Notes: generated from the letters alone by a model not told the origin. A stretch of 64,000 nucleotides of DNA from Bacillota bacterium (GCA_015059195.1 SVAW01000002.1:31304-95303); one strand, 5' to 3'. Positions 23,403 through 51,716 are shown, counted from the stretch's first letter. Made by a program: numbers and translations.

Positions 23403-24878
23403 TTATAAAACTATAGCAAATAAATTACCTGAACCACGATTAACTAATTTAGATAATGTTTGTTGTAATTTATAACGAGCGTTTTCTGGAAGCATAGATA
23501 ATTTAGCTTGAATTCCTTCTTTAACTATAACATCTAAACTGCGTCCAAATATTTCACTTTTCCAAATACTATCTGGCTCATTATCATAATCGCGCATAAT
23601 ATAGTTAATAAGTTCTTTGCTTTGAACCTCTGATCCTATGATTGGTTCAAAAGTACTTTCCACATCTACTCTAATCATATGAATAGATGGGGCTACAGCC
23701 TTTAATTTAATACCATATCTACTACCTTGTTTTAATATTTCGGGTGTATCCAATTTCATATCAGAAAGTGTTGGAGATGCCACACCATATCCAGTTGTTT
23801 TCACCATTTTTAAAGCAGTTTTTATTTGATCGTATTCCAATTTCGCCTCGTTATAATCTTGAAATAATCTAAGCAATTGTGATTTACTTGAGATATCTAT
23901 ACCTATGATATCTTTTAGTACTCTATTATAAAGATTTGATGGTGCTTGAAGAGTAACTGTCACTTCACCCGTAGAAGTATCCACATTTGATAAATATGCC
24001 TTACTTATATACTCACAATCACTAAAATGTTTTGTAATATGTTCGACGTCTCTTAATTTATCAATTTCTATAACACTTTCTTTGATTTTTTCCATATATA
24101 CTTTTTTCAGCCAATTATTTGGTGATAAACAAGCAATCCATTCTGGCATATCCACTTTGACTTCTAATACCGGAAATTCATATAATGCCTCTCTTAAAAT
24201 TGAATAAATATCCCTTTCTGACATATTTTCAACACTAATAGGAAGAACTGGTACTCCATAAGAATCCTTCAAACCTTCTGCCATACGCTCTGTTTCTGGA
24301 AGCATTGGATGTGTAGAATTTAATAGTACTATAAATGGTTTACCTATTTCCTTTAGTTCGCTGACAATTCTTTCTTCTGCCTCTATATAATTTTGTCTCT
24401 CTAGTTCACCTATTGAACCATCAGTTGTAACAACAATTCCAATACTAGAATGATCCTTAATAACTTTTTCTGTACCTATTTCAGCAGCTTCAATAAACGG
24501 AATTTCATCATCATACCATGGTGTCCTAACCATCCTAGGACCATTATCATCTTCATAACCTTTAGCCCCAGGAATTACATATCCTACGCAGTCTACCAAC
24601 CTAACATTAGCACTAAAATCATCTATTTTAATATTAGCTGCATTACTAGGAACAAATTTGGGCTCTGTAGTCATTATTGTTTTGCCTTGTGCACTTTGCG
24701 GAATCTCATCTAAGGCACGCTTTTTTTCATACTCATCTATAATATTAGGAACCACCAAGTTTTCAATAAACTTCTTAATGAATGTAGATTTACCTGTTCT
24801 TACTGCCCCCACTACACCCAAATATAAATCTCCCCCAGTTCTTTCAGTAATACTTTTTATAATTTCTTGTTTTTCCAT
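23403..24878 (-). CDS. spoIVA: Stage IV sporulation protein A (spore coat morphogenetic ATPase)
   Basis: LGVVGAVRTGKSTFIKKF Walker A, the conserved TTEPKFVP, and the expected length and C-terminus. The gene is adjacent to hup, as in Bacillus. Confidence 0.93.
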   Translation of the reverse strand: MEKQEIIKSITERTGGDLYLGVVGAVRTGKSTFIKKFIENLVVPNIIDEYEKKRALDEIPQSAQGKTIMTTEPKFVPSNAANIKIDDFSANVRLVDCVGYVIPGAKGYEDDNGPRMVRTPWYDDEIPFIEAAEIGTEKVIKDHSSIGIVVTTDGSIGELERQNYIEAEERIVSELKEIGKPFIVLLNSTHPMLPETERMAEGLKDSYGVPVLPISVENMSERDIYSILREALYEFPVLEVKVDMPEWIACLSPNNWLKKVYMEKIKESVIEIDKLRDVEHITKHFSDCEYISKAYLSNVDTSTGEVTVTLQAPSNLYNRVLKDIIGIDISSKSQLLRLFQDYNEAKLEYDQIKTALKMVKTTGYGVASPTLSDMKLDTPEILKQGSRYGIKLKAVAPSIHMIRVDVESTFEPIIGSEVQSKELINYIMRDYDNEPDSIWKSEIFGRSLDVIVKEGIQAKLSMLPENARYKLQQTLSKLVNRGSGNLFAIVL

Positions 24879-30464: not shown

Positions 30465-32141
30465 CTAACGTTGCTTATCTACTGAATCTTCACCCATTTC
30501 ATATGCGTTTTCTGAATCAGTAATTGATATTGGGCCTCCAAAGAATTCCTCCAATGTTTGATGAAGAGTTTTATCTTCTGTCTGTGTTCCTGATTGAGTC
30601 CCTTCTGTAACTACAGGTGCATCTTCCATAACCACACCTTCCGTAGGTGTATCCGGAGTAAGATCAACAACAGCACTTCCTTGTTCTGTATAATCTTTTA
30701 ACGCTATACCACTACCTAACGCAGTTCCAACCTCATCCCCATGTGAAATAGCTTCTCCCTGTACAATGTCAGAAATATTAGCTACGGATTCGCCAGGCGA
30801 CAATTCAACATTTTTTTCTACAGTATCTTCTCCTCCAAGAGTATCATCTACAATCGGATCTGAGTCTAAAGAATCTGAAGGACCTGATGGTACATCTGGT
30901 TTTGGAATCAACTCATCACTTTTATCTTCCCCATCAGGATCTGGAACAATATTCTGATCAGTATCTTGTTGAATATCTTCTTGATCACCTAAGGTAATGT
31001 CTTCTTCGTCATCACTATCAAATGGTTGCCCATGTATAGATACATCGTCATTACTAAACTCTATATAATCCAAAGTTGAAGTACATTGTTTTAGACCTAA
31101 TACAGCTAATAAGGCTAAAGCCGCTGCAATAAACTTTTTATAATGTTTTTGCAAAAACTCTTTAATTTTTCCAGTTTTCTTTTTTTCTATTAATTCTTCA
31201 CTAGAATCTTCAACTACAGCTTCACGTTCCTCATCCAATTCAGATGGAGTGGTAAGAGCAGCCTCATAGTCAACTTCTTCATCTTTTTTTGGTAATTCCA
31301 AAACCGGCATTGTTGTAAATGTTTCTGGTTCCTCTTCAACAACTGCTTCTGATTCTACTGCTGGCTCATCTTTTTTTCTTTCAGCATCTGCAATTAATCT
31401 ATCTAAAACTGCATAAGTATCAAAAGTAATATGTTCTTTTCTTGTTTGTAAAGCAAGTACTCCTGCTTGTAATCTTGCAAGCTCATCTTGATCTAAGCGT
31501 AATTGATGTCTGTTAATAATACTACTATTATTTTTTCTACTTTCTTTTACAGCTTTTAATCTGTCTTGTTTAGCAAGCAATATTTGTCTTTTTTTATTGT
31601 TAGCCTCAAGCAACTCACTATAATCTTGAACATCAGTAGCATATAGTTGTTGATACCCTTCAAATTCAACTTTGCGAGATTTTTTTACCTCTAATTCACT
31701 AGTTAATTCTTCCAACTCTTCAACACTTAATTGCATTCTTAAATTCTTACTAACAGCAATTTCATTTTTACGAAGTCTTCTTTCAATGGCCGCAATATCA
31801 GTATCTAATTGTGCTATATCATCAGAATAGCTATCATAAATACGTTGGCCTAAATCTTTTAGCTCTTCATATTCTTTATCTTCTCTATCTAGTGTTGCAA
31901 GTTGTTCTGCAAAAGATTCTTCTAATAATTCTTCAGTTAAATCTCTTGTTTCTTCATTAGGATTTTTGTACAAATAATTATCAAGACTAGCTATTTTTGC
32001 TTCTAATTCAGCAATTTGTTCTTCATAATCAGCTATAGTCGCATCTATTTCAGATACTTCTTGATCAATTTCAGCTCGAGGAGCTGAAGACGTTTGAGCT
32101 CTTAATTGTCTTAATAATTCAATTCTCTCTATATCTGTCAT
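30465..32141 (-). CDS. Coiled-coil membrane protein with an acidic low-complexity ectodomain
   Basis: The N-terminal 330 aa or so are heptad-rich and E/L/Q-rich. A single TM segment (KKFIAAALALLAVLGL) is followed by a D/E/T/P-rich C-terminal tail. Confidence 0.55.
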   Translation of the reverse strand: MTDIERIELLRQLRAQTSSAPRAEIDQEVSEIDATIADYEEQIAELEAKIASLDNYLYKNPNEETRDLTEELLEESFAEQLATLDREDKEYEELKDLGQRIYDSYSDDIAQLDTDIAAIERRLRKNEIAVSKNLRMQLSVEELEELTSELEVKKSRKVEFEGYQQLYATDVQDYSELLEANNKKRQILLAKQDRLKAVKESRKNNSSIINRHQLRLDQDELARLQAGVLALQTRKEHITFDTYAVLDRLIADAERKKDEPAVESEAVVEEEPETFTTMPVLELPKKDEEVDYEAALTTPSELDEEREAVVEDSSEELIEKKKTGKIKEFLQKHYKKFIAAALALLAVLGLKQCTSTLDYIEFSNDDVSIHGQPFDSDDEEDITLGDQEDIQQDTDQNIVPDPDGEDKSDELIPKPDVPSGPSDSLDSDPIVDDTLGGEDTVEKNVELSPGESVANISDIVQGEAISHGDEVGTALGSGIALKDYTEQGSAVVDLTPDTPTEGVVMEDAPVVTEGTQSGTQTEDKTLHQTLEEFFGGPISITDSENAYEMGEDSVDKQR

Positions 32142-32158
32142 ATATACCCTCCTTATTC

Positions 32159-33691
32159 TTACTTTCTATCCCTATATTGTAATTTTACTTGATATCTTAA
32201 ATTATCAGCTGTTTCAATATCCCTTAAGGTATTTACTTGATATCCTAAGGACTGATACTTAGCAATCAAATCAGCTTCACTTAAATAATCATCAACAATT
32301 GCTGTCCAATTGTTAGAATTAACATTTGTAACTCTTTTAAATACAACCTTTGTTCTTGTTTCAATTTCTCTAGTGTCAGCATAAGGTTTTGGCTGTGTTA
32401 GTTGATATTCTGTCCAACTTCCCCAGATACCTTCACCCACTTTTGTTGCTCCTTTTGAAGGTGATGTTGAATAATACTTACTTGTGGTTGTAGTTACTGT
32501 TTTATAATATCTAGATACTTCTATTTCTGTAGAACTATCTTTTACGGCACCATTAACTGGCGCTGTTAGATAGTAATTTTTTTCTCCACTCGCATTACTG
32601 CTTTTACTTGGATAATATTGTTTTGTAGTTGATTCAACTATATTTCCGCATTCAGTTTCATCATCATTTAAAAGTGTTCCCGCTGGGCATGTAATAGAAC
32701 AAACTGTACCTTCACCAACAATTTTACTTCCATCACAAGTGTATTGTCTTCCATATTCTTTCCAATCACTACCCTTTGATGAACAAGACTCTGTGAATGC
32801 TCCAAAGTTACCCTTAACACAATAATATCCTGAACCTTGTCTAAATTGTTCATATCCTGCCTCACATGGAGTAGTAGAATATTTCATTTCGCCATCATAA
32901 CAAATATACCTATATAAAGATGCTTTTGTTACTGTTGGATCTGCCTCTTTTTCCCAAACTTTATTAGAAACAGTTGTATACCATTTCCATCCAGTAGTAG
33001 TACCTTCTTTATTTGTATACTCACCACTTGGTGCACTTGCATAATACACTTTGTCATCAGAAGAATAGTATTTTTTAGTTGTAGTCTGCCACTTCCACAT
33101 TAAATCACGATAACGATAATATTGAGTGGAACTTATAGTTTGGTAATTAATGCCAGTTAGCTCATCTAACCAGGCTTCCTCTTCTTTAGTTGCATCATCT
33201 ACTGCACCTTCTTGGTGTTCTCCCTTAAATGTGAATCGAACATCTGATTTGTCAGCGACTAAATCACTTTCAAAGCCATCTTTCCATACTGTGAAATTAT
33301 CATCAGCCATAGCTTCACCACACTGTAATACTGGAACATAATGATAGTTTCCACTTTCTAATTTGCATACTTTTACATATGTCTTATCATTATTGCAAGT
33401 AACATAGTCTTCACTTGAAAGTAAATTTTTATTTACAAGAGTTCCTAAAGTAACTGTAGAACATTCTCCCTTTGCTTGTGGCAACAAATTAACACCTGAA
33501 CTATAGTATTCTTTTCCAGCTTCTAATAAACTGCGTTCTAAATCCTCATTCTTATTATTTAATACACAACCTTTTACTAATAAAAACACAATAAGCGCTA
33601 AAATTAAGCCACCTAGAATCATTAATATTAATTTGGGCCAATTCTTTTCTTCCCCTCTATCTTTATAATATCCTTCACCATTCATGTTCAT
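32159..33691 (-). CDS. N-terminally anchored Cys-rich surface protein (paralog family with 15578-16678)
   Basis: TM anchor, then LEAGKEYYSSGVNLLPQAKGECSTVTLGTLVNKNLLS...HYVPVLQCGE, followed by a Y/T/K/C-rich region. Confidence 0.55.
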   Translation of the reverse strand: MNMNGEGYYKDRGEEKNWPKLILMILGGLILALIVFLLVKGCVLNNKNEDLERSLLEAGKEYYSSGVNLLPQAKGECSTVTLGTLVNKNLLSSEDYVTCNNDKTYVKVCKLESGNYHYVPVLQCGEAMADDNFTVWKDGFESDLVADKSDVRFTFKGEHQEGAVDDATKEEEAWLDELTGINYQTISSTQYYRYRDLMWKWQTTTKKYYSSDDKVYYASAPSGEYTNKEGTTTGWKWYTTVSNKVWEKEADPTVTKASLYRYICYDGEMKYSTTPCEAGYEQFRQGSGYYCVKGNFGAFTESCSSKGSDWKEYGRQYTCDGSKIVGEGTVCSITCPAGTLLNDDETECGNIVESTTKQYYPSKSSNASGEKNYYLTAPVNGAVKDSSTEIEVSRYYKTVTTTTSKYYSTSPSKGATKVGEGIWGSWTEYQLTQPKPYADTREIETRTKVVFKRVTNVNSNNWTAIVDDYLSEADLIAKYQSLGYQVNTLRDIETADNLRYQVKLQYRDRK

Positions 33692-36300: not shown

Positions 36301-36423
36301 CCTACTCCACCTCTATTATTATTATAGATGATTTAAAAATAAAAATATAGTATTTAACGTAAATTTTACATTTTAATCTTTATTTTTTCTACATATGTGT
36401 TATAATTAAAATAGGTGATTTAA

Positions 36424-37578
36424 ATGAAAAAATTTTTATTCATGGCTTTTTTATTAATGTTTCTAGCAATACCTATTAATGTAATTGCTAAATATGATGA
36501 TGATTGGTTTGAACATGATTTTCAAGGGGTATACTGCACATATCATTCAGCAGCTGTTAATATTGATATTTGTGGTACTAACTTAATGATAGTTTATTCA
36601 GATAATAGAAAAGAGGTTGCTACTGAAGGATGTAATCCCGTTGACCTAAGAGAAGACGGTGGCTATAAGAATGCGGTAGTTTTAGATGATGATTTAGTTG
36701 ATGCTTTCAAAGACAACCCATTTGAGTGTCCTGAAACCATATACGTATATGGTATAAAACCTTCAAATCCGGGTGATACTGTAGAGAATCATTTTACTTT
36801 GCGAAGTACAAATACTTGGGGAGGTGGAATGTATGATCCAACCGAAGTTCAGTTATTAGATAAAGCAGTAGTAAAAAAAGAAGAAAATCAGTTAACATGT
36901 GTTGTTCCATATAATGGTGGATATTATATGGATCATTTGACCCAGGTTTCATTCAGTCATACATTTATATATGTTCTTAATACCCAGACTAAGTCAATTA
37001 GTGAATTTAAATCCCCTGGTTTGCTTAGTTATTCTTTTACTAATAAATTAACTTTTGATGATATTGTTGAAACTACTGGTTCAACATATAAATGCAGAAC
37101 AAACATTGAAAATTTGCAATTAGATTTTGTTGACTATAACGAGGCCTCAGGTGTAATATCTTTAGACATTACAATAGGTGGAAGAACAGATCCTCTCCCT
37201 CCAAACCCAGGAGATCACGCAACAGAAGATGATTTTATTGGTAACCTTACTTGTGGGAATACGTCTTTCAAATTCCATAAAAGTTTACCTAATTTCACAA
37301 ATGTAATTTTTGATTTATTAAAAATTGCAACACCAGTAATTGTTATTATTACGGGTATGTTAGATATGTTTAAAGCAGTAGCCGCTCAAAAAGAGGATGA
37401 AATAAAGAAAGGACAACAAAAGCTTTTAAGACGTTTATTAGCAGGTGCCATTGTATTCTTAGTATTTGTTATAGTTGAAACTGCTATCCATGCATTTGCT
37501 GAAGCCAACGATGCACAAAACGCAATGGATTGTGTAGACTGTTTCTTAGTTGATTCTAATAGCTGTACGAATAGCTAA
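36424..37578 (+). CDS. Secreted Cys-rich protein with a C-terminal VirB2-like two-helix membrane module
   Basis: Signal peptide MKKFLFMAFLLMFLAIPINVIA, a Cys-containing ectodomain of about 250 aa and a Pro-rich linker. The C-terminal part then reads LTCGNTSF...LLKIATPVIVIITGMLDMFKAVAAQKEDEIKKGQQKLLRRLLAGAIVFLVFVIVE...MDCVDCF (about 37246-37578). This part is highly similar to the ORFs at 48798-49552. An extended -10 (TGTTATAAT) and the RBS AGGTGA lie upstream. Confidence 0.65.
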   Translation: MKKFLFMAFLLMFLAIPINVIAKYDDDWFEHDFQGVYCTYHSAAVNIDICGTNLMIVYSDNRKEVATEGCNPVDLREDGGYKNAVVLDDDLVDAFKDNPFECPETIYVYGIKPSNPGDTVENHFTLRSTNTWGGGMYDPTEVQLLDKAVVKKEENQLTCVVPYNGGYYMDHLTQVSFSHTFIYVLNTQTKSISEFKSPGLLSYSFTNKLTFDDIVETTGSTYKCRTNIENLQLDFVDYNEASGVISLDITIGGRTDPLPPNPGDHATEDDFIGNLTCGNTSFKFHKSLPNFTNVIFDLLKIATPVIVIITGMLDMFKAVAAQKEDEIKKGQQKLLRRLLAGAIVFLVFVIVETAIHAFAEANDAQNAMDCVDCFLVDSNSCTNS

Positions 37579-39649: not shown

Positions 39650-39680
39650 AAAAATTAAAAGGATGAATTTTATTCATCCT
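39650..39680 (-). terminator. Intrinsic terminator ending the Tad/T4SS cluster
   Basis: The minus strand has AGGATGAAT-AAA-ATTCATCCT followed by TTTTAATTTTT. The virD4-like stop codon lies in the loop. Confidence 0.7.
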
Positions 39681-41874
39681 CACTAAAGAAATCATCAAAA
39701 AATTGGTCATCAGTAATAAACTTAGTTGATTCTGTTGAAGTATTATCGGTCGTTTGGACTTCTTTAACGTCGTTAGCAGGTAATTCTTCACTTGGTACAT
39801 CAATGCTTTCTTTGTTAACCAAAGCCTTCTCTATTATTGGCTGTTGAGGAATATTTGGAATAAAGTTCGTTTGGGAAACTTCACTTTCAATATTCTTATT
39901 TTCAATTTTTTCATTAACTGTTGGTTGAACAACAACTTCTGGAGTAGATTGTGAAACAGTTTTCTTTTCTTCTTGTTCCCTCTCTAATCTTTCCTCTTCC
40001 TCTAATTCTGCGATTTTAGCATCTATTCGTTTAACTAAATCATCAACATTAAATCCGCTAGTTGATGGATTCTGTTCCTTATTCCCAAACATAGGTGGAA
40101 TGATAGGCATAGAACTATCTTGGGTAGGACTACCACCTAACATTGCATTAATCTTTTCCTCTTTTTTAGCTTCAACAAACGATTTTAAATTAAACACATT
40201 TACAGGCATCTTATCACGATTCGGATAGTCTGCTTTAGGATAATCTTTTTCCCAACAATTATTTTTCATCATCTGCCAGTTTGGAGTTAATTTGGTTTTA
40301 AATGGCATCATTCTAATACGAATCAATATCATTGTCCATTTAGGAAGTCTTTGTAAATCACTTACTGTTACAAGTGGGGTCGATGCAGTTTTATCCTTTT
40401 CTTTAGATTTAACTTCTCCACACATTTTACTAATTTCTTCCAATGCGTTTAACTCACTACTAATTAAGTAAACAATATTACCACAGTTTCCCTTAATAGT
40501 TTCACCATTTTCTTTACCATAAACCTCATATAATTGAGCAAAGTTTTGAATGATGAAACTAAATCTCATAGCACGAGAACGAGCTGCAGTTACCATTGTC
40601 GTTACATCTTTTAATGGTGGCATGTTGGCAAACTCATCCAAAATGAAATTTGTTCTATATGGAAGTTTTCCGCCAGATTCCTGTGCCACTCTAATTAACG
40701 TCTCATAACATTGCTTCAAGAAAATTGTTACCAAAGAATGATATGTTTTCTTTTCATCTTGAACAACGATAAATACTGCTGTTTTTTGACGTCCAATATT
40801 ATCCATATCAAAATCACTATGTGAAAGCATTTCACTCATATTTTCACGTGAAGCGAATAATTTAATTTTTTGTTTAAATACTGATAAAATACTGCCCTTA
40901 GTATCACTAGGAGCCATTAATGTTGATGATGCATTAACATAAGCTGGACCGGCTGGATCTTTATAGCTAAAATATTCCTTTATATAAGTAGTACCTGCTA
41001 TTTTTTCTTCACCAACAGTAGTCATTAAATTAATACTGTTTAAGTTTATTTCTTCCTCTTTAGCATCCTCAAAAAGTCCTAGAGCCAATCCGGCAAAATA
41101 ATCTGCTGAAGTTTTTTCCCAGAATGGATCCTGATTTTTAGATGCTTCATCATACAGAATATTTAATGCTAAGTCATCTAATAACTCACAAGCTTTATCC
41201 TGATTTCCATTCTTATATAAATTATATGGTAAGGATAACGGATTCCAACAATTTCCTTGCTGAGGATCTCTAAAGTTAAGTAAGACTATATTATATCCTT
41301 TTTCCTTTAACTCTACTGCATTCTTTTCATATATTTCACCTTTAGGATCGGTAATAATCATGGACTCGCCTTTTTTAGCAAGAACTTTAACCATTGGTTG
41401 AACAATCATTTCGGTTTTACCAGAACCAGTAGAACCAATTATTAAATTATGATATTCACCGTCATCAACCCAAATTTCACTACCATTATTAATTAAAGGG
41501 ATTCCTGCAACATCACTTTTTAAATCCTTTGCATGAACAAGCTTTAACTCTTTTTTCATTTCTTTTTCTGTAGCCCAACGTGAATATCCTTTATCTTTTT
41601 TAGGATCAGTAGAAATACCAAATCCTTTTTCTCTATCAAAGAATAAAGAAGAAACACTCATGATAATAGCAACCAAAGCACCAATATATCCTATAATTGT
41701 TGCAAAAAGATACTTACTACTAAAAGCAGGTAGAGGATTTAACCCGACTAACACACCTTCTTGAGCAAAACTTCCTAAATTTATTACCGCAATTGCAACA
41801 AAATATAATAAGAATATACTAAACACGATAAACATTAATATATCTTTAGCATCTGCCCTAAATTTCAATTTCAT
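39670..41874 (-). CDS. Type IV coupling protein (VirD4/TraG family ATPase)
   Basis: Two N-terminal TM helices, Walker A LIIGSTGSGKTE, Walker B NFILDEFANMP and the conserved SFIIQNFAQL...YG block. About 170 aa of low-complexity acidic/polar sequence form the C-terminal tail. Confidence 0.85.
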   Translation of the reverse strand: MKLKFRADAKDILMFIVFSIFLLYFVAIAVINLGSFAQEGVLVGLNPLPAFSSKYLFATIIGYIGALVAIIMSVSSLFFDREKGFGISTDPKKDKGYSRWATEKEMKKELKLVHAKDLKSDVAGIPLINNGSEIWVDDGEYHNLIIGSTGSGKTEMIVQPMVKVLAKKGESMIITDPKGEIYEKNAVELKEKGYNIVLLNFRDPQQGNCWNPLSLPYNLYKNGNQDKACELLDDLALNILYDEASKNQDPFWEKTSADYFAGLALGLFEDAKEEEINLNSINLMTTVGEEKIAGTTYIKEYFSYKDPAGPAYVNASSTLMAPSDTKGSILSVFKQKIKLFASRENMSEMLSHSDFDMDNIGRQKTAVFIVVQDEKKTYHSLVTIFLKQCYETLIRVAQESGGKLPYRTNFILDEFANMPPLKDVTTMVTAARSRAMRFSFIIQNFAQLYEVYGKENGETIKGNCGNIVYLISSELNALEEISKMCGEVKSKEKDKTASTPLVTVSDLQRLPKWTMILIRIRMMPFKTKLTPNWQMMKNNCWEKDYPKADYPNRDKMPVNVFNLKSFVEAKKEEKINAMLGGSPTQDSSMPIIPPMFGNKEQNPSTSGFNVDDLVKRIDAKIAELEEEERLEREQEEKKTVSQSTPEVVVQPTVNEKIENKNIESEVSQTNFIPNIPQQPIIEKALVNKESIDVPSEELPANDVKEVQTTDNTSTESTKFITDDQFFDDFFSEDE

Positions 41875-41885
41875 CTTTATTCCAC

Positions 41886-42575
41886 CTAACTATTATTTTT
41901 CTTATTTTTATATACAAATATTCCTACAGCAATCAATCCTACAATTGCAACACCTAATAAAACACCGATTACTATAAGTAGGGTCATATGTGATTGAATG
42001 AAATTTCTTATAACTACATCCCATCTTATCTTATCACTATACGAAAAATAAACTTCTTCTTTAGTGTGCGCATCAAACTCCCATATATGTTGATTCTTAT
42101 TTACATTAATCATATCAGCGTTCGATGCTAAAATTTGATATTCTGAATTCAACCTAAAAGTAATCTTATCTAACGTTAACATACAACCTTCATCAAATTC
42201 ACCACATACAAATCTTGAATTATTATATCCTTTTAGCCTAACTGTAGTTACATTTCCTTTTTTATTAACTAAAACAGTATTATAAAGTGTTTTGATTATA
42301 TCACTTTGTGATATCCACATAGCGTCATTAAATTTATGTGCAATTTCTACAGTAGAACTAGTAACATCATATTCAACATTTTCTTGTTTTAATGATGGAA
42401 TATTCTTAATATTATCTTGTATTAAAGTATCTAAATTCCCTAATCCATCACTACGTCCATATTCAAAATATAATTTTTCTTCAAAAGAATCAACATAAAT
42501 ATCTAAATTATATGTTACACTGCTACAACCAGTTAAAATGAAGGCCATCATCAATATCCCTAATATTTTTTTCAT
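41886..42575 (-). CDS. Lipoprotein with an additional C-terminal TM anchor (T4SS accessory)
   Basis: Lipobox MKKILGILMMAFILTGC, the C-terminal TM segment LLIVIGVLLGVAIVGLIAVGIFVY, then basic residues. The ATG at 42575 follows GGAGG, 1 nt after the upstream stop. Confidence 0.6.
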   Translation of the reverse strand: MKKILGILMMAFILTGCSSVTYNLDIYVDSFEEKLYFEYGRSDGLGNLDTLIQDNIKNIPSLKQENVEYDVTSSTVEIAHKFNDAMWISQSDIIKTLYNTVLVNKKGNVTTVRLKGYNNSRFVCGEFDEGCMLTLDKITFRLNSEYQILASNADMINVNKNQHIWEFDAHTKEEVYFSYSDKIRWDVVIRNFIQSHMTLLIVIGVLLGVAIVGLIAVGIFVYKNKKNNS

Positions 42576-42576
42576 A

Positions 42577-44193
42577 TTAACAACTACCTCCATTTATTGC
42601 ACAAACTTCAATAAATTCCTGATTTGCTAAAATATCAATCCCATTAGCATAGTTATTAAGTGCTACCAACGGATTTATTACCTTGCCGTCTCCATTATGC
42701 ACTTCAAAGTGTAAATGTGGTCCTGTAGAACAACTATCCTCTGCAGTTGTCCCGCCAACATATCCAATAACCTGCCCCTTAGAAACATTAGTACCTACAG
42801 GCAAAGTAGATAATAAGTTGTTAGATCTTCTATTTAAATGCACATATCTAGTATAATATACCGCACCAGAAGCTGTTGTGTGTTTTAGTTTAATTATACT
42901 GCTACCACACGTTACCGTCGTAGCAGTAGTAACAGCTTCTACCACACCATCTTCAAAAGCAAGAATTTGCGTATCATATCCGGCACCACCAATATCTACA
43001 CCTTTATGCGCTTGATACACTTTTTTTGTTGGATGGCAACGACAATTTGCAGGTTGGGAAGTCACTCTTAAATTTAAACCATCAGGAAGCATAGTAAATA
43101 GGCCATCTGTATTTTCCACTATAGTGAGTGTACCATTATTTAATATTCCACCCATTTTTAATATCTCATTAGCAATTTCAGCTTTAGTTCTAACTCCTTC
43201 GCGGGCAGCATCAGGATAATTATTTCCTATATAATTATTTATTAAATACTCACGATACTTAATAGCACTGCTAGAACATTCAGAGACTTCTACAAAGCCA
43301 CTTTCATCAACTGTGTCTTCATCTGTTATTTCTTCTCCTTTTAAGTATACTTTTATCAAACCATTAATTTTGGAAGTGGCATTACCACCTCTACCATCTA
43401 CATTCAAATAGTCAAAATAAGACTTATTTATATTATCTTCATCTGTTCCAGAATCATTATCTTCTTTTACCATCTGACCATAAAAAATGGTTGCAGTTAT
43501 CAAATCCTCATTAATCTTACAACTTCCTTGATAATTTGCAATGGCCTTGTTAAGTTCCTCATAATATCTTGACTGCTCATTCTGTTGACATTCCGAGGCC
43601 ACACACCAACCATCCCCACTAAACCAATTGCCAAGTTTTTCAAAGAAAGCACCTATACCATTTAGTAAATCACCAATCCATGCAATTGGTGCCAAAATTA
43701 AAGTTAATGTAGCTGCTATTATAAACAACGTCAACAGAGCCGACGCAACCGTTGTAATGAGTATAAATATTAGCTGAAGCTTGATTTGCTTAAATCCTTT
43801 TTCTACCAGTGCCTGCCCTGCATCACTATCCATGAATTTATCAATGATTTTATCTCTAATTCCCTTGGGAATCCATTTAGTATATGGTACTACTCCGGCA
43901 GCCTGTTTTAAAGCCTCCTTAGCTACCTCAGTACCCATACCTTGGACATTGGGTAGTCCTGTAGATGTTTTTCCTTTATTTTCCTGACCTGCGCCTTTTT
44001 TCTTCTTATTAGCTCCTTTATCAGAGCCATCACCAGACGCTCCCTTACCTTGTTGTTTTCCTTGATGTTGAGCGTTCTGGTTAGCCTTATTTTGTTTAAT
44101 TTTGTCAGAAAGTTTTTCGCCATTTGGTAATGTTGCTTTACTCGCATTACCTTTTACCTGAGGTGCTTTTTTCATTAAATCTTTGCCTTTCAA
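42577..44193 (-). CDS. Membrane-anchored M23 peptidoglycan endopeptidase (T4SS wall hydrolase, VirB1/PrgK/TcpG functional analog)
   Basis: The C-terminal M23 motifs are HKGVDIGG (HxxxD) and GPHLHFEVH (HxH). The N-terminal 125 aa or so are K/G/Q/N-rich, followed by hydrophobic helices. A TTG start at 44193 lies 6 nt after AGGTGGTGA. Confidence 0.8.
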   Translation of the reverse strand: MKGKDLMKKAPQVKGNASKATLPNGEKLSDKIKQNKANQNAQHQGKQQGKGASGDGSDKGANKKKKGAGQENKGKTSTGLPNVQGMGTEVAKEALKQAAGVVPYTKWIPKGIRDKIIDKFMDSDAGQALVEKGFKQIKLQLIFILITTVASALLTLFIIAATLTLILAPIAWIGDLLNGIGAFFEKLGNWFSGDGWCVASECQQNEQSRYYEELNKAIANYQGSCKINEDLITATIFYGQMVKEDNDSGTDEDNINKSYFDYLNVDGRGGNATSKINGLIKVYLKGEEITDEDTVDESGFVEVSECSSSAIKYREYLINNYIGNNYPDAAREGVRTKAEIANEILKMGGILNNGTLTIVENTDGLFTMLPDGLNLRVTSQPANCRCHPTKKVYQAHKGVDIGGAGYDTQILAFEDGVVEAVTTATTVTCGSSIIKLKHTTASGAVYYTRYVHLNRRSNNLLSTLPVGTNVSKGQVIGYVGGTTAEDSCSTGPHLHFEVHNGDGKVINPLVALNNYANGIDILANQEFIEVCAINGGSC

Positions 44194-44218
44194 ACAACAT
44201 CACCACCTAATTACTTAA

Positions 44219-46003
44219 CTACAATCCTCCACCACTACCGAAGGAATCTAATTCTTGCTCAGTCGCAATTATATTAATTTGCATTCTACGACTACCGCAC
44301 ACAAATAGTGCTTCTCCTTGATTAAATTTCTTAATCGCTTCTTTTTCATTATCATTTAAATCAATTAACTTAGCTAAATCTTCAACAGCTTGTTTTTTTA
44401 GCCCCATTGCTAAATAATATGAAGCATTGTCAAAAATAGCTTTACCTTGAGTGATAACCCCTGGATCACTAAAGTCGCTTGGTTGTTGAGTAATAATAAT
44501 TGTACCTGTATTATACTTACGAGCACGTCTTTGTACTTGTGCTAAAAAGTCTGCTCCTAAAGTATTATTTCCACTCAATAACACGTGTGCTTCATCAACC
44601 ATTAAAATAGTATTAATTTCTCTATTTAAAGTTAACCCCCATGCATACTTCAAAACGTTAAAGAATAAAGCATTTCTAATATTAGTATCTGCATTCATAA
44701 GCTCACGGATATTAAATACTATAAAATCACTTTTTGGAGATATTGTAGTATGACCGTCAAAATAATATTTTAACTCTTTAATAATCGGTCTAACTTTTAG
44801 TTCTAACATTTCTAGCACATCACGTTCATGTGTTTTTTCTGTCATCGATAATAACTTACCTCTGATAGTCGCATAAACATCTTTAAATGTTGGATAATCT
44901 TCTGATTTAAACTGTGTAAAATCAGAAGTAAAATCAATCCCAAAACGTTTATAAGTGTCTTGTAAAATTTCACTAAACATGTTAATAACATCTTCTGTCA
45001 CACTAGGATCATAATACTTTAAGAACGCTTTAACAGTTTGAATAGTACGTGTTAAAACAGTATATCCTAGTCCTTGCGCCATTTCTTCTTCATCTGCATC
45101 TACAACTACCTCAAGTGGATTTATCATACCAAATTCTCCACCTTTACCTAGGTCAATGAAATCTCCACCATACATTCTGGTCATATCTTCAAACTCACCC
45201 TCTGGGTCAATGATAACAATTTGATTATCATTACGAATATGAGTTCTAACCATTAATTTTGCAGCAGTAGATTTTCCACTTCCAGAAGTACCCAATATAA
45301 TTAGGTTCGCATTGTTTCTGTTATGTTCTTTTTTAATTTGATACAAAAACTGGTTAAATAAGATTACTCCCCCAGAGAAATCTACCCCTAAAAGTGTTGA
45401 TAACCCTGGGTCCTTTATGCTATCAAAAATGAATGGATACATAGCAGCGATAGTTGGAGCAGGGATTGGAGTTCCAATCCTATTTTCTATATCTTGTTTA
45501 CCATAAATTGGTAAAATTGATTTTAATACTTGTTCTTGTTCAAATCTTAATGGGAATGCGCGCATTTCCATTGCTTCCAAATAATTTTTAACCTGTAATT
45601 TTTTGTTAACCAATTCTTCTTCAGAATCTGCAGTCACCATTATGTGCATTTGGAAATCATATATTTTAGACTGAGTCGCTGCCAACTGAGAAATAAAATA
45701 TTCTAAAGACTCGTAGTCTTGACGAATTCTTTCTTGAATTGTCTTATCATTTTCTTGTTGATACCTTGATTTTAAATCAGCAATTTCTTTGTTTAACATT
45801 TTAGTAATTACACTAAAAGGCAGAGGTATATGTTTAATAACTACCTTAACCCCTGACATACTTGTTAGTGAAGACAAATATCCTGGACCAATAAATTTTG
45901 GATATGATACAACTGTTAATATCGTTGCATACTTATCGCTAATAACAAAATCACTTGCTCTAAATTGTAAGCCCTTAGGCGCCACTTGAGCTCTAACATC
46001 CAT
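44219..46003 (-). CDS. VirB4-family T4SS ATPase, C-terminal (motor) part
   Basis: Walker A ILGTSGSGKST, Walker B ILMVDEAH and IIITQQPSDF. The ORF starts with the mid-VirB4 segment ...KYATILTVVSYPKFIGPGYLSSL. Confidence 0.88.
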   Translation of the reverse strand: MDVRAQVAPKGLQFRASDFVISDKYATILTVVSYPKFIGPGYLSSLTSMSGVKVVIKHIPLPFSVITKMLNKEIADLKSRYQQENDKTIQERIRQDYESLEYFISQLAATQSKIYDFQMHIMVTADSEEELVNKKLQVKNYLEAMEMRAFPLRFEQEQVLKSILPIYGKQDIENRIGTPIPAPTIAAMYPFIFDSIKDPGLSTLLGVDFSGGVILFNQFLYQIKKEHNRNNANLIILGTSGSGKSTAAKLMVRTHIRNDNQIVIIDPEGEFEDMTRMYGGDFIDLGKGGEFGMINPLEVVVDADEEEMAQGLGYTVLTRTIQTVKAFLKYYDPSVTEDVINMFSEILQDTYKRFGIDFTSDFTQFKSEDYPTFKDVYATIRGKLLSMTEKTHERDVLEMLELKVRPIIKELKYYFDGHTTISPKSDFIVFNIRELMNADTNIRNALFFNVLKYAWGLTLNREINTILMVDEAHVLLSGNNTLGADFLAQVQRRARKYNTGTIIITQQPSDFSDPGVITQGKAIFDNASYYLAMGLKKQAVEDLAKLIDLNDNEKEAIKKFNQGEALFVCGSRRMQINIIATEQELDSFGSGGGL

Positions 46004-46554
46004 TAACTCATCACCGTCCCAAAATTAGTAGTTTGTCCACCATTTAAGAAATTATCTAGTATAATCCTTAAATCGTCATTAGTAGTTTGCCTGCAAGTTA
46101 GTCCTGCACTTGCAAAAGCATTTATTAAAGCGCGAATTCTTTTTTGAATTAATTCAGAATCCTTTTCTTTAAATAATAGATAATACTCTGTATCAACTAC
46201 GTTATTACTCATAAACATATTTGCCTTATTAATATCGTCAACTATTAATTTACGACGTGCATTATCTTGAACATTGTTATACAAAAGTTGAAGTTGAGAT
46301 AAATAAACATTGATGTCCACTGGTCTATCTGCTGCAATCACCCAAAATTCGTAATCTATAGTATTATAAACATTCTTCAAATTATTTATAATGCTATCTT
46401 GCATATCCTGTTCAAGGATGAAAATATTTCGAGGCATTATCTTTACCCCAGTAACTTTTACATTATCATTAAGAATTATTACTCCATTAGTAATACTTTT
46501 AATCGGAACATTATCAACAGTATATCTACTAGTTGCCGTCTTTTTCTTCGCCAT
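46003..46554 (-). CDS. VirB4-family N-terminal domain encoded as a separate ORF
   Basis: TSRYTVDNVPIKSITNGVIILNDNVKVTGVKIMPRNIFILEQDMQDSIINNL follows the pattern of the N-terminus of Gram-positive VirB4 proteins (Tn916 Orf16/ConE/TcpF type). Its stop overlaps the next start (TAATG). Confidence 0.6.
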   Translation of the reverse strand: MAKKKTATSRYTVDNVPIKSITNGVIILNDNVKVTGVKIMPRNIFILEQDMQDSIINNLKNVYNTIDYEFWVIAADRPVDINVYLSQLQLLYNNVQDNARRKLIVDDINKANMFMSNNVVDTEYYLLFKEKDSELIQKRIRALINAFASAGLTCRQTTNDDLRIILDNFLNGGQTTNFGTVMS

Positions 46555-46849
46555 TACTAAAACACCAACCTTTCCAATAATAAATTCTTCTTTCTGTATA
46601 AAATCTCCACACCGACATTATTACAGTTCTTACATTATGATAATTAGGAATCGGGAATACAAGAAATCCCGCAATTAGTGCTGGTATTAGCGCGATTACC
46701 GCATACAGCAATTGCTCAATCGGAAGAAGAGGAAGCAACAATAACGTTAATCCCACTCCTGCTCCGAACAAGCCCAAATCAAATGGCCTGAACAGCCCAA
46801 AAATCAACATTGACTTTTTTGAATTTGCCGGTATTAAAAATTGATTCAT
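46529..46849 (-). CDS. VirB3/PrgI/TcpE-like small membrane protein
   Basis: 106 aa with two TM helices and the N-terminal segment FLIPANSKKSMLIFGLF. It lies immediately upstream of VirB4, as VirB3 analogs do. Confidence 0.6.
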   Translation of the reverse strand: MNQFLIPANSKKSMLIFGLFRPFDLGLFGAGVGLTLLLLPLLPIEQLLYAVIALIPALIAGFLVFPIPNYHNVRTVIMSVWRFYTERRIYYWKGWCFSNGEEKDGN

Positions 46850-46868
46850 CTAGTATCACACCCTTTTA

Positions 46869-48689
46869 TTATTTTTTATTCTTGCTTTGTTCATTACTCA
46901 ATGTTGTAATTTGTTTTTGAATGCTGTGAATTTGTTTTCCTACGCTATTACGTTGATCAACCATATCAATATACTGTTGTTGATCACTAGTTAATGTAGT
47001 AGCTTGAACTCCAGCAGAATCATAGTACGTTTTAACCCCAGTAGTTTTATCTGTTTGTACAGTATATGAAGAAAATTTCATTTCATCAGATGGCGCTATA
47101 CCATGGTTCGTTGCAAAACTATGCATTTGCTCGCCCAAAGACGTTTCCATCAATTGTAAGTTCTTAGATTGATTTTGTAAGGCTATTATTCTTGGCTTGG
47201 TGCTTTGATCTACTCCAGCCCATGCTCTAACTCTATCTAAAGTTCGATCGCCAAGTCCATAACCAACATCTTGTCTTTCGTCACGTACATCACGTTTATC
47301 TACAGCGCCTTTAATTCCAGAACCTGCAGCTTTAAACATATTTTTGTCCTTAGACATTGCACCCCTACCGGCAGCGCTCATTCCTCCAGCTAAACCTGAA
47401 AAAAGATTTCCGGTAGCTCGTGTAAATCCTTTAAATCCTTTTTGCCCATCCGTTAAAGACTTGAATGCTCCTGGTCCTCCGGCTCCCTTTCTGCCTTTCC
47501 ACATTTTATTTCCTAAAGCCCATGTGTTAGCAGCCATACCACCAGCAAAACCTAATGCTCCAGCCCCGGCAGCTTTAGCAAGTCCCATGCCAGGCATAGA
47601 ACCTAGTCTTTTCTTCAGACTAAATCCATCGCCAGATAATTTAACCCCAAGTATATTTTCAATAAACTGTGGTAATTGTTTTGCAAACATTAATGAACCA
47701 ATTATAATAAATAATTGTACAAAGAAGCCCGCTCTAGTTGTTGATATTGTTCCATCAGAGCTATAATAAGTCAGCATATGAAATTCATTGTTTGGATCTA
47801 ATATCAACCTAATAACTTCTGTGGCAAAAAAAACCCCAGCTAAACGTATAAATAACCCGGCAAATTCCTTGCCGCAATTAGTTGCCCATTTTTTTAACTT
47901 TTCATTTCCTGTTGTAGGATCAATCATGGATAAAATAGGAATAGGAGCAATGATTTGTAACACCCCTAACTTGATTGCACGAGTCGCCGCGTCTAAACAG
48001 AAAACTAAAAAGAAATAAGCAACCACTCCACCACATATAGTAGACAATAAAAATTTATACTCATTTTCAAATCCATGTGTTCCACTACCATCTCTAGTAA
48101 CAGTACTTACGGCCACATAACATTCTGCTGTTGTACACTCCCCCTCATCGCCTATAGGCGGTGACACACTCGTAGTACTTGCGCCGACTGCTCCAGCATC
48201 TTTATATATAAACGATTGGAAGACTCCTTTAGCAATTTCATCCGCTAAATATTTAGCATTATCTTCTAATGCTAATGCTCCTGAACCTCCAGAGCTTGTC
48301 ACCGTGTTGCCAGTTATAATTTGATATATTGCGTTTTCATTTAATATCATATACTGCAATCTAAACGCTTCCCTAAAAATTGAAGGTACAGTAACTATCA
48401 AAATTAATGAAATAACTACGTTAGTGATAAGTTTGCCAAATCCTTTACTTTTATCTGTCATAGCATCAGGATTTATGATATACGTAATCATAGACATAGA
48501 CAGTTTAAATATCATAAAAATACCAAGGAAAACATAAATTCTTCCAAGTATCGCATATATAAGATCCCCAAAAACATTGGTATTAGCTATTTGGATTAAT
48601 AAAACATATAAGTTTTTTATAAGCCAAACCACTATACTATCTATCAGAGCAAACAAAGCTCTAATTATCGTTAAAAACAAATTAATCAT
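46869..48689 (-). CDS. VirB6/TrbL-like polytopic channel protein with Gly-rich and Gln-rich C-terminal region
   Basis: About 7-8 TM helices, a Cys-pair loop (ECTTAEC), Gly-rich GSMPGMGLAKAAGAGALGFAGGMAA and a soluble tail of about 170 aa. Its position between the VirB2-like and VirB3/VirB4-like genes fits the call. Confidence 0.6.
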   Translation of the reverse strand: MINLFLTIIRALFALIDSIVVWLIKNLYVLLIQIANTNVFGDLIYAILGRIYVFLGIFMIFKLSMSMITYIINPDAMTDKSKGFGKLITNVVISLILIVTVPSIFREAFRLQYMILNENAIYQIITGNTVTSSGGSGALALEDNAKYLADEIAKGVFQSFIYKDAGAVGASTTSVSPPIGDEGECTTAECYVAVSTVTRDGSGTHGFENEYKFLLSTICGGVVAYFFLVFCLDAATRAIKLGVLQIIAPIPILSMIDPTTGNEKLKKWATNCGKEFAGLFIRLAGVFFATEVIRLILDPNNEFHMLTYYSSDGTISTTRAGFFVQLFIIIGSLMFAKQLPQFIENILGVKLSGDGFSLKKRLGSMPGMGLAKAAGAGALGFAGGMAANTWALGNKMWKGRKGAGGPGAFKSLTDGQKGFKGFTRATGNLFSGLAGGMSAAGRGAMSKDKNMFKAAGSGIKGAVDKRDVRDERQDVGYGLGDRTLDRVRAWAGVDQSTKPRIIALQNQSKNLQLMETSLGEQMHSFATNHGIAPSDEMKFSSYTVQTDKTTGVKTYYDSAGVQATTLTSDQQQYIDMVDQRNSVGKQIHSIQKQITTLSNEQSKNKK

Positions 48690-48797
48690 TATTACAGCAC
48701 CCTTTCAAAATGTATTCATTACTTTCCTATATACAGTATATCACAATAAAAAAAAATAATAAATACAAATATTTACTATTTTTTATTTTATATCTTT

Positions 48798-49151
48798 TTA
48801 TGATATATAAGGTGTACAAGAAGAAGTACCATTTATAAAACAGTTTACACAATTCCATATTGTTGTATCTTCATCAGGAGCAACAACATTAAATAATACT
48901 TCTACAATAATGAACACAAAGAACACAATTGCAGCCGATAACAATCTTTTTATAAAAAGTGTTTGTGACTTTTTAATTTCATCTTCTTTTTGTGCTATAA
49001 CAGCCTTCCCAAAATCTAACATACCAAATATAATCAATAATACTGGTACACCAATTTTTAATAAATCTACAATAGTACTTGTTAATTGTGGTATAATTCC
49101 AGCCATTTTAGGAATAATACTTCCACATTTATAATACGTTGTTAATAACAT
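48798..49151 (-). CDS. VirB2/TrbC-like two-helix pilin-like protein, copy B
   Basis: 117 aa reading ...KCGSIIP...LLKIGVPVLLIIFGMLDFGKAVIAQKEDEIKKSQTLFIKRLLSAAIVFFVFIIVE...WNCVNCFINGTSSC. The layout is two TM helices, a charged loop and a Cys tail. The RBS is AAGGAG. Confidence 0.6.
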   Translation of the reverse strand: MLLTTYYKCGSIIPKMAGIIPQLTSTIVDLLKIGVPVLLIIFGMLDFGKAVIAQKEDEIKKSQTLFIKRLLSAAIVFFVFIIVEVLFNVVAPDEDTTIWNCVNCFINGTSSCTPYIS

Positions 49152-49165
49152 AACCTCACTCCTTC

Positions 49166-49552
49166 TTAAGCTCTACAATCTAAAACTTCATTTCCTTCTG
49201 CATCATATGCATCTGCAGTCTCAGAAGAAACACCATTAATTAAACAGCTAATACAGTTCCATACTTTTGTTTCCTTACTAGCAACTAAATTGAACACTAC
49301 TTGAACAATCATTACTACAAAGAACACTAAAGCAGCAGACAATAATCTTTTTAAGAATGTTTGTTGTGACTTTTTAATTTCATCTTCTTTTTGGGCCATT
49401 ACAGCCTTCCCTAAATCTAACATACCAAATATAATTAATAATACTGGTACTCCGATTTTAATTAGTGTAACTATCAAACTAACGATATTAGGAATCATTA
49501 TGTCCATAGTTAAAATACCATTACCACATTGAATACTGTCTAAAATATACAT
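49166..49552 (-). CDS. VirB2/TrbC-like two-helix pilin-like protein, copy A
   Basis: 128 aa and a tandem paralog of copy B. A core of about 110 nt is nearly identical at the DNA level. The RBS is AAGGAGGA. Confidence 0.6.
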   Translation of the reverse strand: MYILDSIQCGNGILTMDIMIPNIVSLIVTLIKIGVPVLLIIFGMLDLGKAVMAQKEDEIKKSQQTFLKRLLSAALVFFVVMIVQVVFNLVASKETKVWNCISCLINGVSSETADAYDAEGNEVLDCRA

Positions 49553-49575
49553 GTTACATCCTCCTTACTAATTAA

Positions 49576-49604
49576 ATCATACTTTATTTAACAATATTTG
49601 TCAA
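49576..49604 (-). promoter_or_regulatory. Internal sigma-A type promoter upstream of the VirB2-like genes
   Basis: Minus strand reads TTGACA, a 17-nt spacer, then TATGAT, within the 63-nt gap after the TadZ-like gene. Confidence 0.55.
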
Positions 49605-49615
49605 TAATATTTAAC

Positions 49616-50581: not shown

Positions 50582-50595
50582 AAGTTCCTCCTTTA

Positions 50596-51012
50596 TTAAC
50601 CAAAAACTTTTGTCTCTCCATATACGGGGATATTAATATAGCCTCCAATTATTGGAAAATCAAAATACATATATGCAATTACTTTATAATATTTTCCTCT
50701 GTGCGAATTATAAGTATAAATGCAATATAAATAATCTGTTCCGTGATATGTTTCACTTGTAGAACCCTCCATAGTTGGACAAGTCCTACCATTATTATAT
50801 CGGTAGCCAATATCGCTCAAGGTATTATTAATATCAGCATTAATAATACCGCCGGAAAAATCTCCATCATGATGCTCAATAACATCTATAATTCGATTCT
50901 TTACCCTAAAGGCTTTTGTATAACTTATTGATGTAACCAATAAAGCCATTACAACAACAAGAAATATTATCATTATATTCATTAACATAGCATTACCTGT
51001 TGCTGCTTTCAT
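50596..51012 (-). CDS. Minor pilin-like protein (TadE/TadF position), paralog 2
   Basis: N-terminus MKAATGNAMLMNIMIIFLVVVMALLV. It shares YTKAFRVKNRIIDVIE, YCIY and MYFDFPIIGGYINIPVYGET with the neighbouring 138-aa ORF. Confidence 0.5.
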   Translation of the reverse strand: MKAATGNAMLMNIMIIFLVVVMALLVTSISYTKAFRVKNRIIDVIEHHDGDFSGGIINADINNTLSDIGYRYNNGRTCPTMEGSTSETYHGTDYLYCIYTYNSHRGKYYKVIAYMYFDFPIIGGYINIPVYGETKVFG

Positions 51013-51023
51013 TTTACACCCCT

Positions 51024-51440: not shown

Positions 51441-51463
51441 AGCTTATCTCCCTGTTTTTGTAA

Positions 51464-51682
51464 TTATGGACATAGTGTATCTACAGTCGCCATATCATTA
51501 GCCCATCCTGCAACACCTGTACAGCTTCCATTTTCCCAGACTCCACCTAATGATTGACAACAAGCAGAACGTTTTGTAGAATTTACTACACTAGTAATAA
51601 TTGGTGTTGCAATAGCAGCAACTACACCGATTAATACTAATGTAATTACAGTCATATTTGCTTCTCCAGCAGCTTCTTTCAT
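51464..51682 (-). CDS. Flp-like major pilin candidate, Cys-rich C-terminus
   Basis: 72 aa reading MKEAAG/EANMTVITLVLIGVVAAIATPIITSVV followed by a 4-Cys tail. It lies directly after tadC and has its own strong promoter. Confidence 0.5.
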   Translation of the reverse strand: MKEAAGEANMTVITLVLIGVVAAIATPIITSVVNSTKRSACCQSLGGVWENGSCTGVAGWANDMATVDTLCP

Positions 51683-51716
51683 TTATTTCACCACCGTTCT
51701 TATTTTAATTAACTAA

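Follow-up and report, generated by a model that had tools for sequence, protein, structure and literature searches.

The stretch analysed here is a window of 64,000 nucleotides, one strand, from a Bacillota bacterium (GCA_015059195.1 SVAW01000002.1:31304-95303), and the element in question is the open reading frame (ORF) W384, which occupies exactly 36424..37578 (+). It encodes a protein of 384 amino acids (aa), about 362 aa once the signal peptide is removed, in which a large exported domain is fused to a C-terminal module that appears to be a divergent relative of the VirB2-like pilins of type IV secretion systems (T4SSs). The protein is deposited as hypothetical protein MBE6138428.1; the ORF is intact and an identical protein is found on 17 contigs. 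Sequence and hydropathy agree with the layout given in the original prediction, namely a signal peptide, a large ectodomain, a proline-rich linker and a C-terminal two-helix module. The features of the gene are the following.

36396..36418 (+): putative expression signals of its own, an extended -10 element (TGTTATAAT) and a ribosome-binding site (GGTGA) 6 nt upstream of the ATG, read from the sequence
36424..36489 (+): Sec-type signal peptide, residues 1-22, predicted cleavage between MKKFLFMAFLLMFLAIPINVIA and KY; hydrophobic segment at residues 1-24
36490..37188 (+): passenger ectodomain, residues 23-255, six Cys, motifs C38-T-Y40 and C102-P103
37189..37215 (+): proline-rich linker DPLPPNPGD, residues 256-264, right-hand end of the variable cassette
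37216..37578 (+): conserved module, putatively VirB2-like (T4SS_pilin-type), residues 265-384, recognized from paralogs, PF18895, HHalign, AlphaFold2 (AF2), Cys covariation and the loop
37592..37628 (no strand): perfect inverted repeat (15 bp, 7-nt loop) between runs of A and T, located with a repeat finder

The leader of W384 begins with MKK, continues with a hydrophobic core and ends in VIA before KY. The ectodomain is about 235-240 residues long and carries Cys at positions 38, 50, 70, 102, 159 and 224; the earlier description of it as Cys-rich is only moderately apt for six Cys in about 240 residues. The module consists of an N-flank strand FIGNLTCG (containing C277), helix 1 (about 287-321), helix 2 (about 324-358) and a C-flank with C370-x-x-C373 plus C381, and its loop spans residues 311-339 (GMLD..AQKEDEIKKGQQ..RRLL). 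The signal peptide and the positive-inside rule predict a hairpin with both termini outside and a cytoplasmic loop. The inverted repeat lies between the convergent W384 and DUF2238 genes and probably functions as a bidirectional terminator. W384 is read as monocistronic because it has its own extended -10 element and ribosome-binding site and the 15-bp hairpin 3' of the gene; a consensus scan for promoters and terminators, uninformative in such AT-rich DNA, returned 13 promoter-like sites where about 9 are expected and no terminators. As originally described, the gene is located outside the neighbouring cluster of secretion genes and on the opposite strand. Its distance from the VirD4 gene, measured to the 3' end of the latter (39670), is 2.09 kb, with DUF2238, RmuC and rhodanese genes in between.

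The module has the following relatives in the window.

48798..49151 (-): W117, leaderless minimal pilin-like paralog of 117 aa, directly upstream of the VirB6-like gene (285 bp)
49166..49552 (-): W128, second leaderless minimal pilin-like paralog, 128 aa
10499..11743 (-): W414, second fusion, 414 aa, with signal peptide, Cys-rich ectodomain, proline-rich linker and divergent module

Composition-adjusted BLASTP reveals that residues 277-382 of W384 are 50% identical to W117 over 106 aa (E=4e-31) and that the W384 module is 43% identical to W128 (E=1e-26), so that the proposed homology to both small VirB2-like ORFs holds. W128 in turn is 63-66% identical to W117 (tblastn), and the two genes are located 285-670 bp from VirB6. 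The fourth module mentioned in the original prediction corresponds to the C-terminus of W414. This protein is the ortholog of the large gene whose neighbour is VirB6 in the majority of related clusters and VirD4 in L004 (L001, L004 and L083 denote loci of relatives, and P0023 and P0007 module proteins of relatives). The W414 gene is paired with a gene for a TMEM164-family membrane protein (10499..12479, -), and the L004 pair is situated at 12597..14595. The pair adjoins recA here and VirD4 in L004, a placement that indicates a rearrangement in which a cluster component was moved 28 kb away.

An alignment of 383 modules shows the strongest conservation in the polar loop (GMLD..AQKEDEIKKGQQ..KRL), with a mean top-residue frequency of 0.75 as compared to 0.51 and 0.57 for the helices. 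Every one of the 383 has a loop of exactly 29 residues; the net charge of the loop is about +2. Since conservation is highest in this polar loop and not in the hydrophobic helices, the similarity is not compositional or that of generic transmembrane helices; together with the E values obtained under composition adjustment, this rules out the concern that the resemblance might be one of composition only. Spurious transmembrane matches are common (rhodopsin, Frizzled and MscL appeared as noise in the searches), and on that ground the resemblance could be ascribed to chance, or W384 regarded as a decaying, functionless duplicate. However, besides the E value of 4e-31, the Cys positions are conserved along with the loop, the intact ORF recurs as an identical protein on its 17 contigs, and, out of 1.84 billion cluster representatives, a profile of the module retrieves 9,465 at E<=1e-3 and 4,882 at E<=1e-10. 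Chance or decay is therefore left with a negligible probability.

Assignment of the module to the VirB2-like pilins depends on several comparisons. Across the module set, PF18895 (T4SS_pilin) is the commonest Pfam match (10 of 14 members, best E=6.7e-7), the other Pfam matches being scattered transmembrane noise. The W414 module aligns with profile positions 3-71 of 71 and scores 26.0 bits against a cutoff of 26.6, and database homologs of W414 carry a precomputed PF18895 annotation. Profiles of the W384 type and the W414 type are matched by HHalign (99.5%, E=1.4e-22). Against NF045849 (Mbov_0395 pilin-like) the module stays below the cutoff of 40 bits, at 17 bits (E=0.0035), and weak matches of this kind are found in 7 of 14 modules. 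In the AF2 prediction the module forms a helical hairpin, the helices of which span module residues 18-52 and 55-89, and both flanks contribute short strands; the predicted local distance difference test (pLDDT) score is 78. A sequence-profile search of the PDB with the module returned transmembrane noise only (e.g. rhodopsin). The designation VirB2-like is accepted because the PF18895, HHalign and AF2 matches are found together with small paralogs upstream of VirB6-VirB3-VirB4. Pfam-family homology and paralog synteny thus lead us to accept the module as a divergent VirB2-like unit of predicted function, its membership in PF18895 being indirect. At 384 aa, W384 is outside the range of about 50-150 aa of VirB2-like pilins.

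Features of other surface proteins were also looked for. Unlike type IV pilins (of type IV pili or Tad systems), W384 has no class III signal peptide with a single N-terminal helix; it has a Sec-type leader and two C-terminal helices. The LPXTG motif of sortase-anchored, PrgB-type adhesins is absent from W384, the C-terminus of which consists of the two-helix hairpin and a Cys-rich tail. Full-length W384 does not match VirB5/TraC-type families in Pfam or NCBIfam.

The CG dipeptide at the start of the module had been suggested to mark a processing site. Its conservation is confirmed: all of 135 large family members have the Cys, and conservation of the Gly is 90% or higher. However, processing is weakened by the distribution of the flanking Cys. 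One N-flank and three C-flank Cys are present in 283 of 383 modules and one plus one in 30; an N-flank Cys is always accompanied by a partner in the C-flank, the flank total is even in 338 of the 383 (88%), and modules that lack the second Cys of the CxxC also lack the third. Such covariation is consistent with a disulfide bond between the C277-type N-flank Cys and the first C-flank Cys, with the second pair being local. The H-pilus pilin TrhA is reportedly cyclized head to tail, as are some other Gram-negative pilins. The putative Cys staple of W384 would have a similar effect, closing the hairpin covalently on the outside, and may be regarded as a testable alternative to such cyclization.

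The same region bears on the idea that W384 is a processed precursor, with signal peptide and passenger serving as an extended pro-region and cleavage in the linker, close to the FIGNL-CG junction, freeing a soluble protein and leaving a minimal pilin. The conserved unit of the fusions starts exactly where the leaderless pilins start (DFIGNL.CG versus MFILD..CG), the latter beginning only 6-10 residues before CG, and classical pilins such as VirB2, TraA and TrbC are made with long cleaved leaders. However, the linkers of the fusions are wholly different (Pro-rich, poly-Asn or Ser/Thr-rich), with CG as the sole shared motif, and the Cys of this motif covaries with those of the C-flank in the manner expected of a disulfide partner. 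Moreover, a leader model is inapplicable to those members in which the passenger is C-terminal, and a dedicated protease is not evident in the cluster. A precursor of this kind appears improbable to us, though cleavage elsewhere in the linker is possible.

Passenger fusion is a family trait, of which W384 is one case among thousands. A genome scan revealed 76 loci, almost all of them in metagenome-assembled genomes of uncultured gut 'Bacilli' or 'Tenericutes', where arrays of 2-7 module genes are located between the Tad genes and the VirB6 gene. The module genes in these loci comprise 85 leaderless minimal forms (about 110-130 aa, start MFILD..CG), 79 forms with a signal peptide and the unit, and 47 in which a passenger stands between signal peptide and unit. 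Passengers in the loci set are attached at the termini only, 47 at the N-terminus and eight at the C-terminus, and a Sec-type leader is present in about 93% of family members with N-terminal extensions. The fusions fill pilin slots within the cluster, as P0023 does in L001 and as the large VirB6-adjacent genes do. The module family was found almost exclusively in genomes with this cluster, and the module has no match in 72,556 plasmids or 50,697 phages. The link to the neighbouring machine that the original prediction had drawn for W384 is strengthened by these proteins of the same architecture, whose genes in related genomes belong to the cluster itself, with the Tad genes on one side and the VirB6 gene on the other.

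In contrast to the module, the ectodomain of W384 is an orphan. Searches with the full-length protein and with the ectodomain only found no homolog but W384 itself in 5.8 billion proteins, and there was no match among 209 family passengers using phmmer and jackhmmer, including iterations seeded from other passenger groups. At the locus RNase R / gene / DUF2238 / RmuC, a module gene is present in five relatives. In these five orthologous loci the flanking proteins are 82-97% identical to those of the window and the modules 54-86%, whereas the passengers give no match. DNA homology to the relatives ends at the start codon (36424) and resumes at 37217 (codon 265). What occupies this place elsewhere includes unrelated domains of about 150-350 aa at the N-terminus; in L004, hardly any N-extension but a low-complexity tail at the C-terminus; and in P0007, a choline-binding-like repeat that is C-terminal. 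Because W384 is identical on 17 contigs but has no other match in 5.8 billion proteins, the passenger is considered stable within the species and replaced between species.

The 209 family passengers fall into 88 unrelated groups, 68 of which are singletons. A C-x-[YFW] motif near the mature N-terminus is present in 80% of them as compared to 10% in shuffled sequences (C38-T-Y40 in W384), and 'CP' in 73% as compared to 16% (C102-P103 in W384). These frequencies hint at a common disulfide-bonded fold that has diverged beyond sequence recognition. A shared 'C-x-Y ... CP' domain was considered and rejected, as it could not be demonstrated as homology; it stands only as a statistically enriched motif. 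In Pfam searches, the passengers gave one match each to a choline-binding repeat, a dockerin and DUF7343 and none to a toxin. Since the few recognizable passengers are binding modules (choline-binding repeat, dockerin) and none is a toxin, a role in binding rather than a toxic one is suggested. This is relevant to the proposal that W384 might be a cargo or effector translocated by the neighbouring T4SS, for which its closeness to the VirD4/VirB4 cluster could be quoted. However, a Sec signal peptide and two transmembrane helices make W384 a membrane protein and deprive it of the cytoplasmic location that substrates of a coupling protein need, and toxin or enzyme domains are absent from the family passengers. 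The cargo proposal is thus not supported and is, in our judgement, very improbable.

We favour, at somewhat better than an even chance, the interpretation that W384 is a modular VirB2-like pilin which displays a species-specific ectodomain and is handled by the neighbouring T4SS. A modular pilin with a displayed passenger is proposed because the passengers are terminal only, because the loop is invariant, and because of the geometry of conjugative pili, in which the subunit termini are outside and the loop lines the lumen (10.64898/2025.12.18.695078). Passengers restricted to the termini and an inviolate loop are what display on a filament with outward termini and a luminal loop would require. 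In this model, the Sec signal peptide would export the ectodomain of about 240 residues, which a flexible proline-rich linker joins to the C-terminal hairpin, a paralog of the small pilin-like subunits encoded beside the VirB6/VirB4 genes. The hairpin would have both ends outside the cell and its positively charged 29-residue loop in the cytoplasm, and on the outer face a disulfide from C277 to the C-flank Cys cluster, suggested by Cys covariation, would close it. Judging from homology, synteny and conjugative pilus geometry, the VirB6/VirB4 machine might recruit the W384 module together with the minimal pilins of 48798..49552. The module might then be built into, or cap, a short pilus or stalk crossing the cell wall, as a minor or tip subunit, and by analogy with solved pili (outward termini, luminal loop) the passenger would be exposed on the exterior. 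The passenger is read as a possible target-recognition or adhesion domain because the cassette is replaced between species at a conserved locus. It might take over the function of the VirB5 tip or adhesin, which seems to be missing from Gram-positive systems, and set partner or surface specificity for the chromosomal, relaxase-less Tad and T4SS apparatus of these uncultured organisms. Homology, topology, synteny and variability come from the sequence analysis, whereas assembly and function of the pilin are predicted.

Several observations weigh against this interpretation. The W384 module itself scores 13.1 bits against PF18895 (E=0.11), which is below the curated cutoff of 26.6 bits. A Foldseek search of the module against the PDB returned generic helical hairpins only, all with E>1, and no significant match to a solved pilin, a two-helix hairpin being too simple for this test. 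In an AF2 model of full-length W384, for which only the module had alignment rows, pLDDT is below 50 over residues 14-267, so that no fold can be assigned there. Polymerization of the module is a prediction. The monocistronic gene is on the opposite strand, 7-10 kb from the VirB4 and VirB6 genes (9.9 kb for VirB6); adjacency to virB6 and virB4 holds for W117, W128 and the fusions of related genomes. Finally, a domain of 240 residues on every subunit would be hard to pack in a helical pilus, and therefore W384 is at best a minor or tip subunit.

Some of these points would suit a different role, in which the module is a plain two-helix membrane anchor for a variable surface protein (adhesin, receptor or exclusion factor) that is independent of the T4SS. 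W384 has promoter-like and terminator-like signals of its own outside the cluster and on the other strand, W384 and W414 are both dispersed in this genome, and polymerization finds no support in the Foldseek comparison. However, the loop, for which an anchor has no need, is the most conserved segment of the module and is invariant in length. Fusions also occupy pilin slots within the clusters of related genomes, and the module family is found almost only in cluster-bearing genomes and not in plasmids or phages. On balance, a plain anchor seems unlikely, though it has to be taken seriously.

A stronger version of the favoured pilin model would regard the fusions as true modular conjugative-type pilins. 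Here the hairpin would co-polymerize with the leaderless minimal pilins on a VirB6 platform in a walled monoderm, and the replaced, species-specific ectodomains, at the tip or along the fibre, would recognize the partner or host and provide the missing VirB5-like function. For this lineage of uncultured gut Bacilli the apparatus would then be a core lifestyle organelle, comparable to the T4SS that is essential in Patescibacteria. We consider this possible but doubtful.

VirB2-like proteins exist in Gram-positive T4SSs, as exemplified by PrgF of pCF10, for which AlphaFold models on VirB6 are backed by mutagenesis and labelling (10.64898/2025.12.18.695078). Like W384, pilins of the PrgF type are two-helix hairpins with a short charged loop and are encoded beside virB6 (in the case of W384, this applies to its minimal paralogs). 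However, they are single-copy, plasmid-borne proteins of 50-150 aa, whereas W384 is a chromosomal protein of 384 aa from a multi-gene paralog family, with a large N-terminal passenger and a putative Cys staple. The W384 module has no detectable sequence similarity to plasmid proteins. The one systematic Gram-positive screen for VirB2-like proteins took only those of 50-150 aa, and a VirB5-like tip was not found (10.64898/2025.12.18.695078). In the Mycoplasma integrative and conjugative element (ICE), Mbov_0395 (NF045849) is a small protein with two transmembrane segments beside Mbov_0396 (VirB6-like) and VirB4, for which a passenger is not described.

Another of the closest systems is that of Patescibacteria (Southlakia ML1, TM7x), with chromosomal MPF_FATA-like T4SSs, no relaxase nearby and tandem arrays of 2-11 divergent PF18895/VirB2-like genes (PMC12102498; PMC12857230). 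Both systems are chromosomal, have no relaxase found near them, contain VirB2-like arrays and belong to a monoderm host lineage with reduced genomes. They differ in that the lineage here is Bacillota (SpoIVA, class A penicillin-binding protein (PBP)) and in that the cluster is joined to a Tad-like system. No mention of passenger-bearing pilins was found in the searched parts of the two publications. In Bartonella Trw and in Anaplasma, surface-exposed VirB2/VirB5 paralogs are multiplied and diversified, which is thought to broaden target binding or evade immunity (as cited in PMC12102498). Those variants are small pilins with point divergence, whereas in the present family the module is constant and the passengers are wholly replaced. 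The modular type IV pilins PilB and PilC of S. sanguinis have a bulky adhesive domain grafted on a polymerization module in a monoderm filament (PMC8179133). The concept is the same, but the filament superfamily is unrelated and the comparison is an analogy only: PilB and PilC combine one N-terminal helix with a class III signal peptide and carry the graft at the C-terminus, in contrast to the Sec signal peptide, C-terminal two-helix hairpin and N-terminal graft of W384.

Until 2025, Gram-positive T4SSs were described as being without pilins, a view changed by the essential pilin arrays of Patescibacteria and by PrgF of pCF10; a review of December 2025 still has VirB2 absent from Gram-positive T4SSs except in Patescibacteria. 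The Patescibacteria arrays and PrgF alike consist of small subunits, and a tip or adhesin subunit has so far not been found. What we describe is a very large, lineage-wide family with a pilin-type unit and hypervariable passengers at termini which in known pili face outward. If the machine assembles them, these proteins would be a concrete candidate for target recognition by monoderm T4SS filaments and a natural display scaffold, and the lineage would be a second bacterial group beyond Patescibacteria with a chromosomal T4SS pilin array. The original prediction knew of no pilin-like anchor with a large passenger domain, and an incomplete literature search likewise found no published account of passenger-bearing or fused VirB2-like pilins, of a T4SS in gut Bacilli of the RF39/RFN20 type or of this Tad and T4SS cluster. 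The family suggests a previously undescribed way to decorate T4SS machines with variable recognition domains.

The cluster that adjoins W384 has the following composition.

39670..48689 (-): T4SS half, synteny repeated in L001
39670-41874 (-): VirD4 coupling protein
between VirD4 and the M23 hydrolase (-): lipoprotein-like ORF of 235 aa
42577-44193 (-): M23 hydrolase
44219-46003 (-): VirB4
46003-46554 (-): separate TraC-like N-terminal ORF of VirB4
46529-46849 (-): small VirB3-like ORF with two transmembrane segments
46869-48689 (-): VirB6-like gene
49616..55374 (-): Tad-like half
within 49616..55374 (-): 321-aa ORF, two TadE-like ORFs and two TadB/C-like ORFs
51464-51682 (-): Cys-rich pilin candidate of 72 aa
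53442-54569 (-): TadA-type ATPase
54571-55374 (-): RcpC/CpaB

VirB4 is split (44219..46554, -) into a TraC-like N-terminal ORF of 183 aa and an ATPase ORF of 594 aa. Because the same split is present in L001 (180 and 594 aa), it is a conserved arrangement and not a frameshift. The VirB6-like ORF and the N-terminal VirB4 ORF of the window match Mycoplasma ICE models. In the Tad half, the 72-aa ORF (51464..51682, -) stands between the TadC-like and TadE-like genes; its product begins with a hydrophobic helix and ends in a tail with five Cys. It is likely a Tad/Flp-type pilin of this half and is separate from the T4SS_pilin modules. The outer end of the Tad half is occupied by two uncharacterized membrane or exported ORFs of 218 and 529 aa (55466..57720, -), which may be part of the apparatus, since L001 has ORFs of similar size (216 and 532 aa) at the same position.

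The whole Tad-like and T4SS supercluster (39670..57720, -) is situated in the core chromosome between scpB and rmuC/rnr, and its synteny is kept in dozens of uncultured gut Bacilli species. Neither a relaxase nor an integrase was found among the window ORFs scanned. The rest of the window is core chromosome, with RecA, RNase Y, Lon, RNase R, SmpB, SpoIVA, Der, DnaD, LigA, ScpA/B and a class A PBP. The presence of SpoIVA (23403..24878, -; E=1e-109) and of the class A PBP (17563..20445, +) shows that the lineage is one of walled, probably spore-forming Bacillota, even though the labels 'Tenericutes' or 'Acholeplasma' are attached to some related records.

Two ORFs elsewhere in the window (1373..2107, - and 15578..16678, -) have N-terminal hydrophobic segments resembling pseudopilin or prepilin leaders (e.g. 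MKLNNRGFAVTSIIYSMLVLFLALLLL), and their C-terminal domains are rich in Cys or aromatic residues and have no confident Pfam match. Upstream of smpB, two ORFs of 558 and 510 aa (30465..33691, -) have no Pfam match, and ORFs of similar size are likewise placed in L083 and possibly, by size only, in L004.

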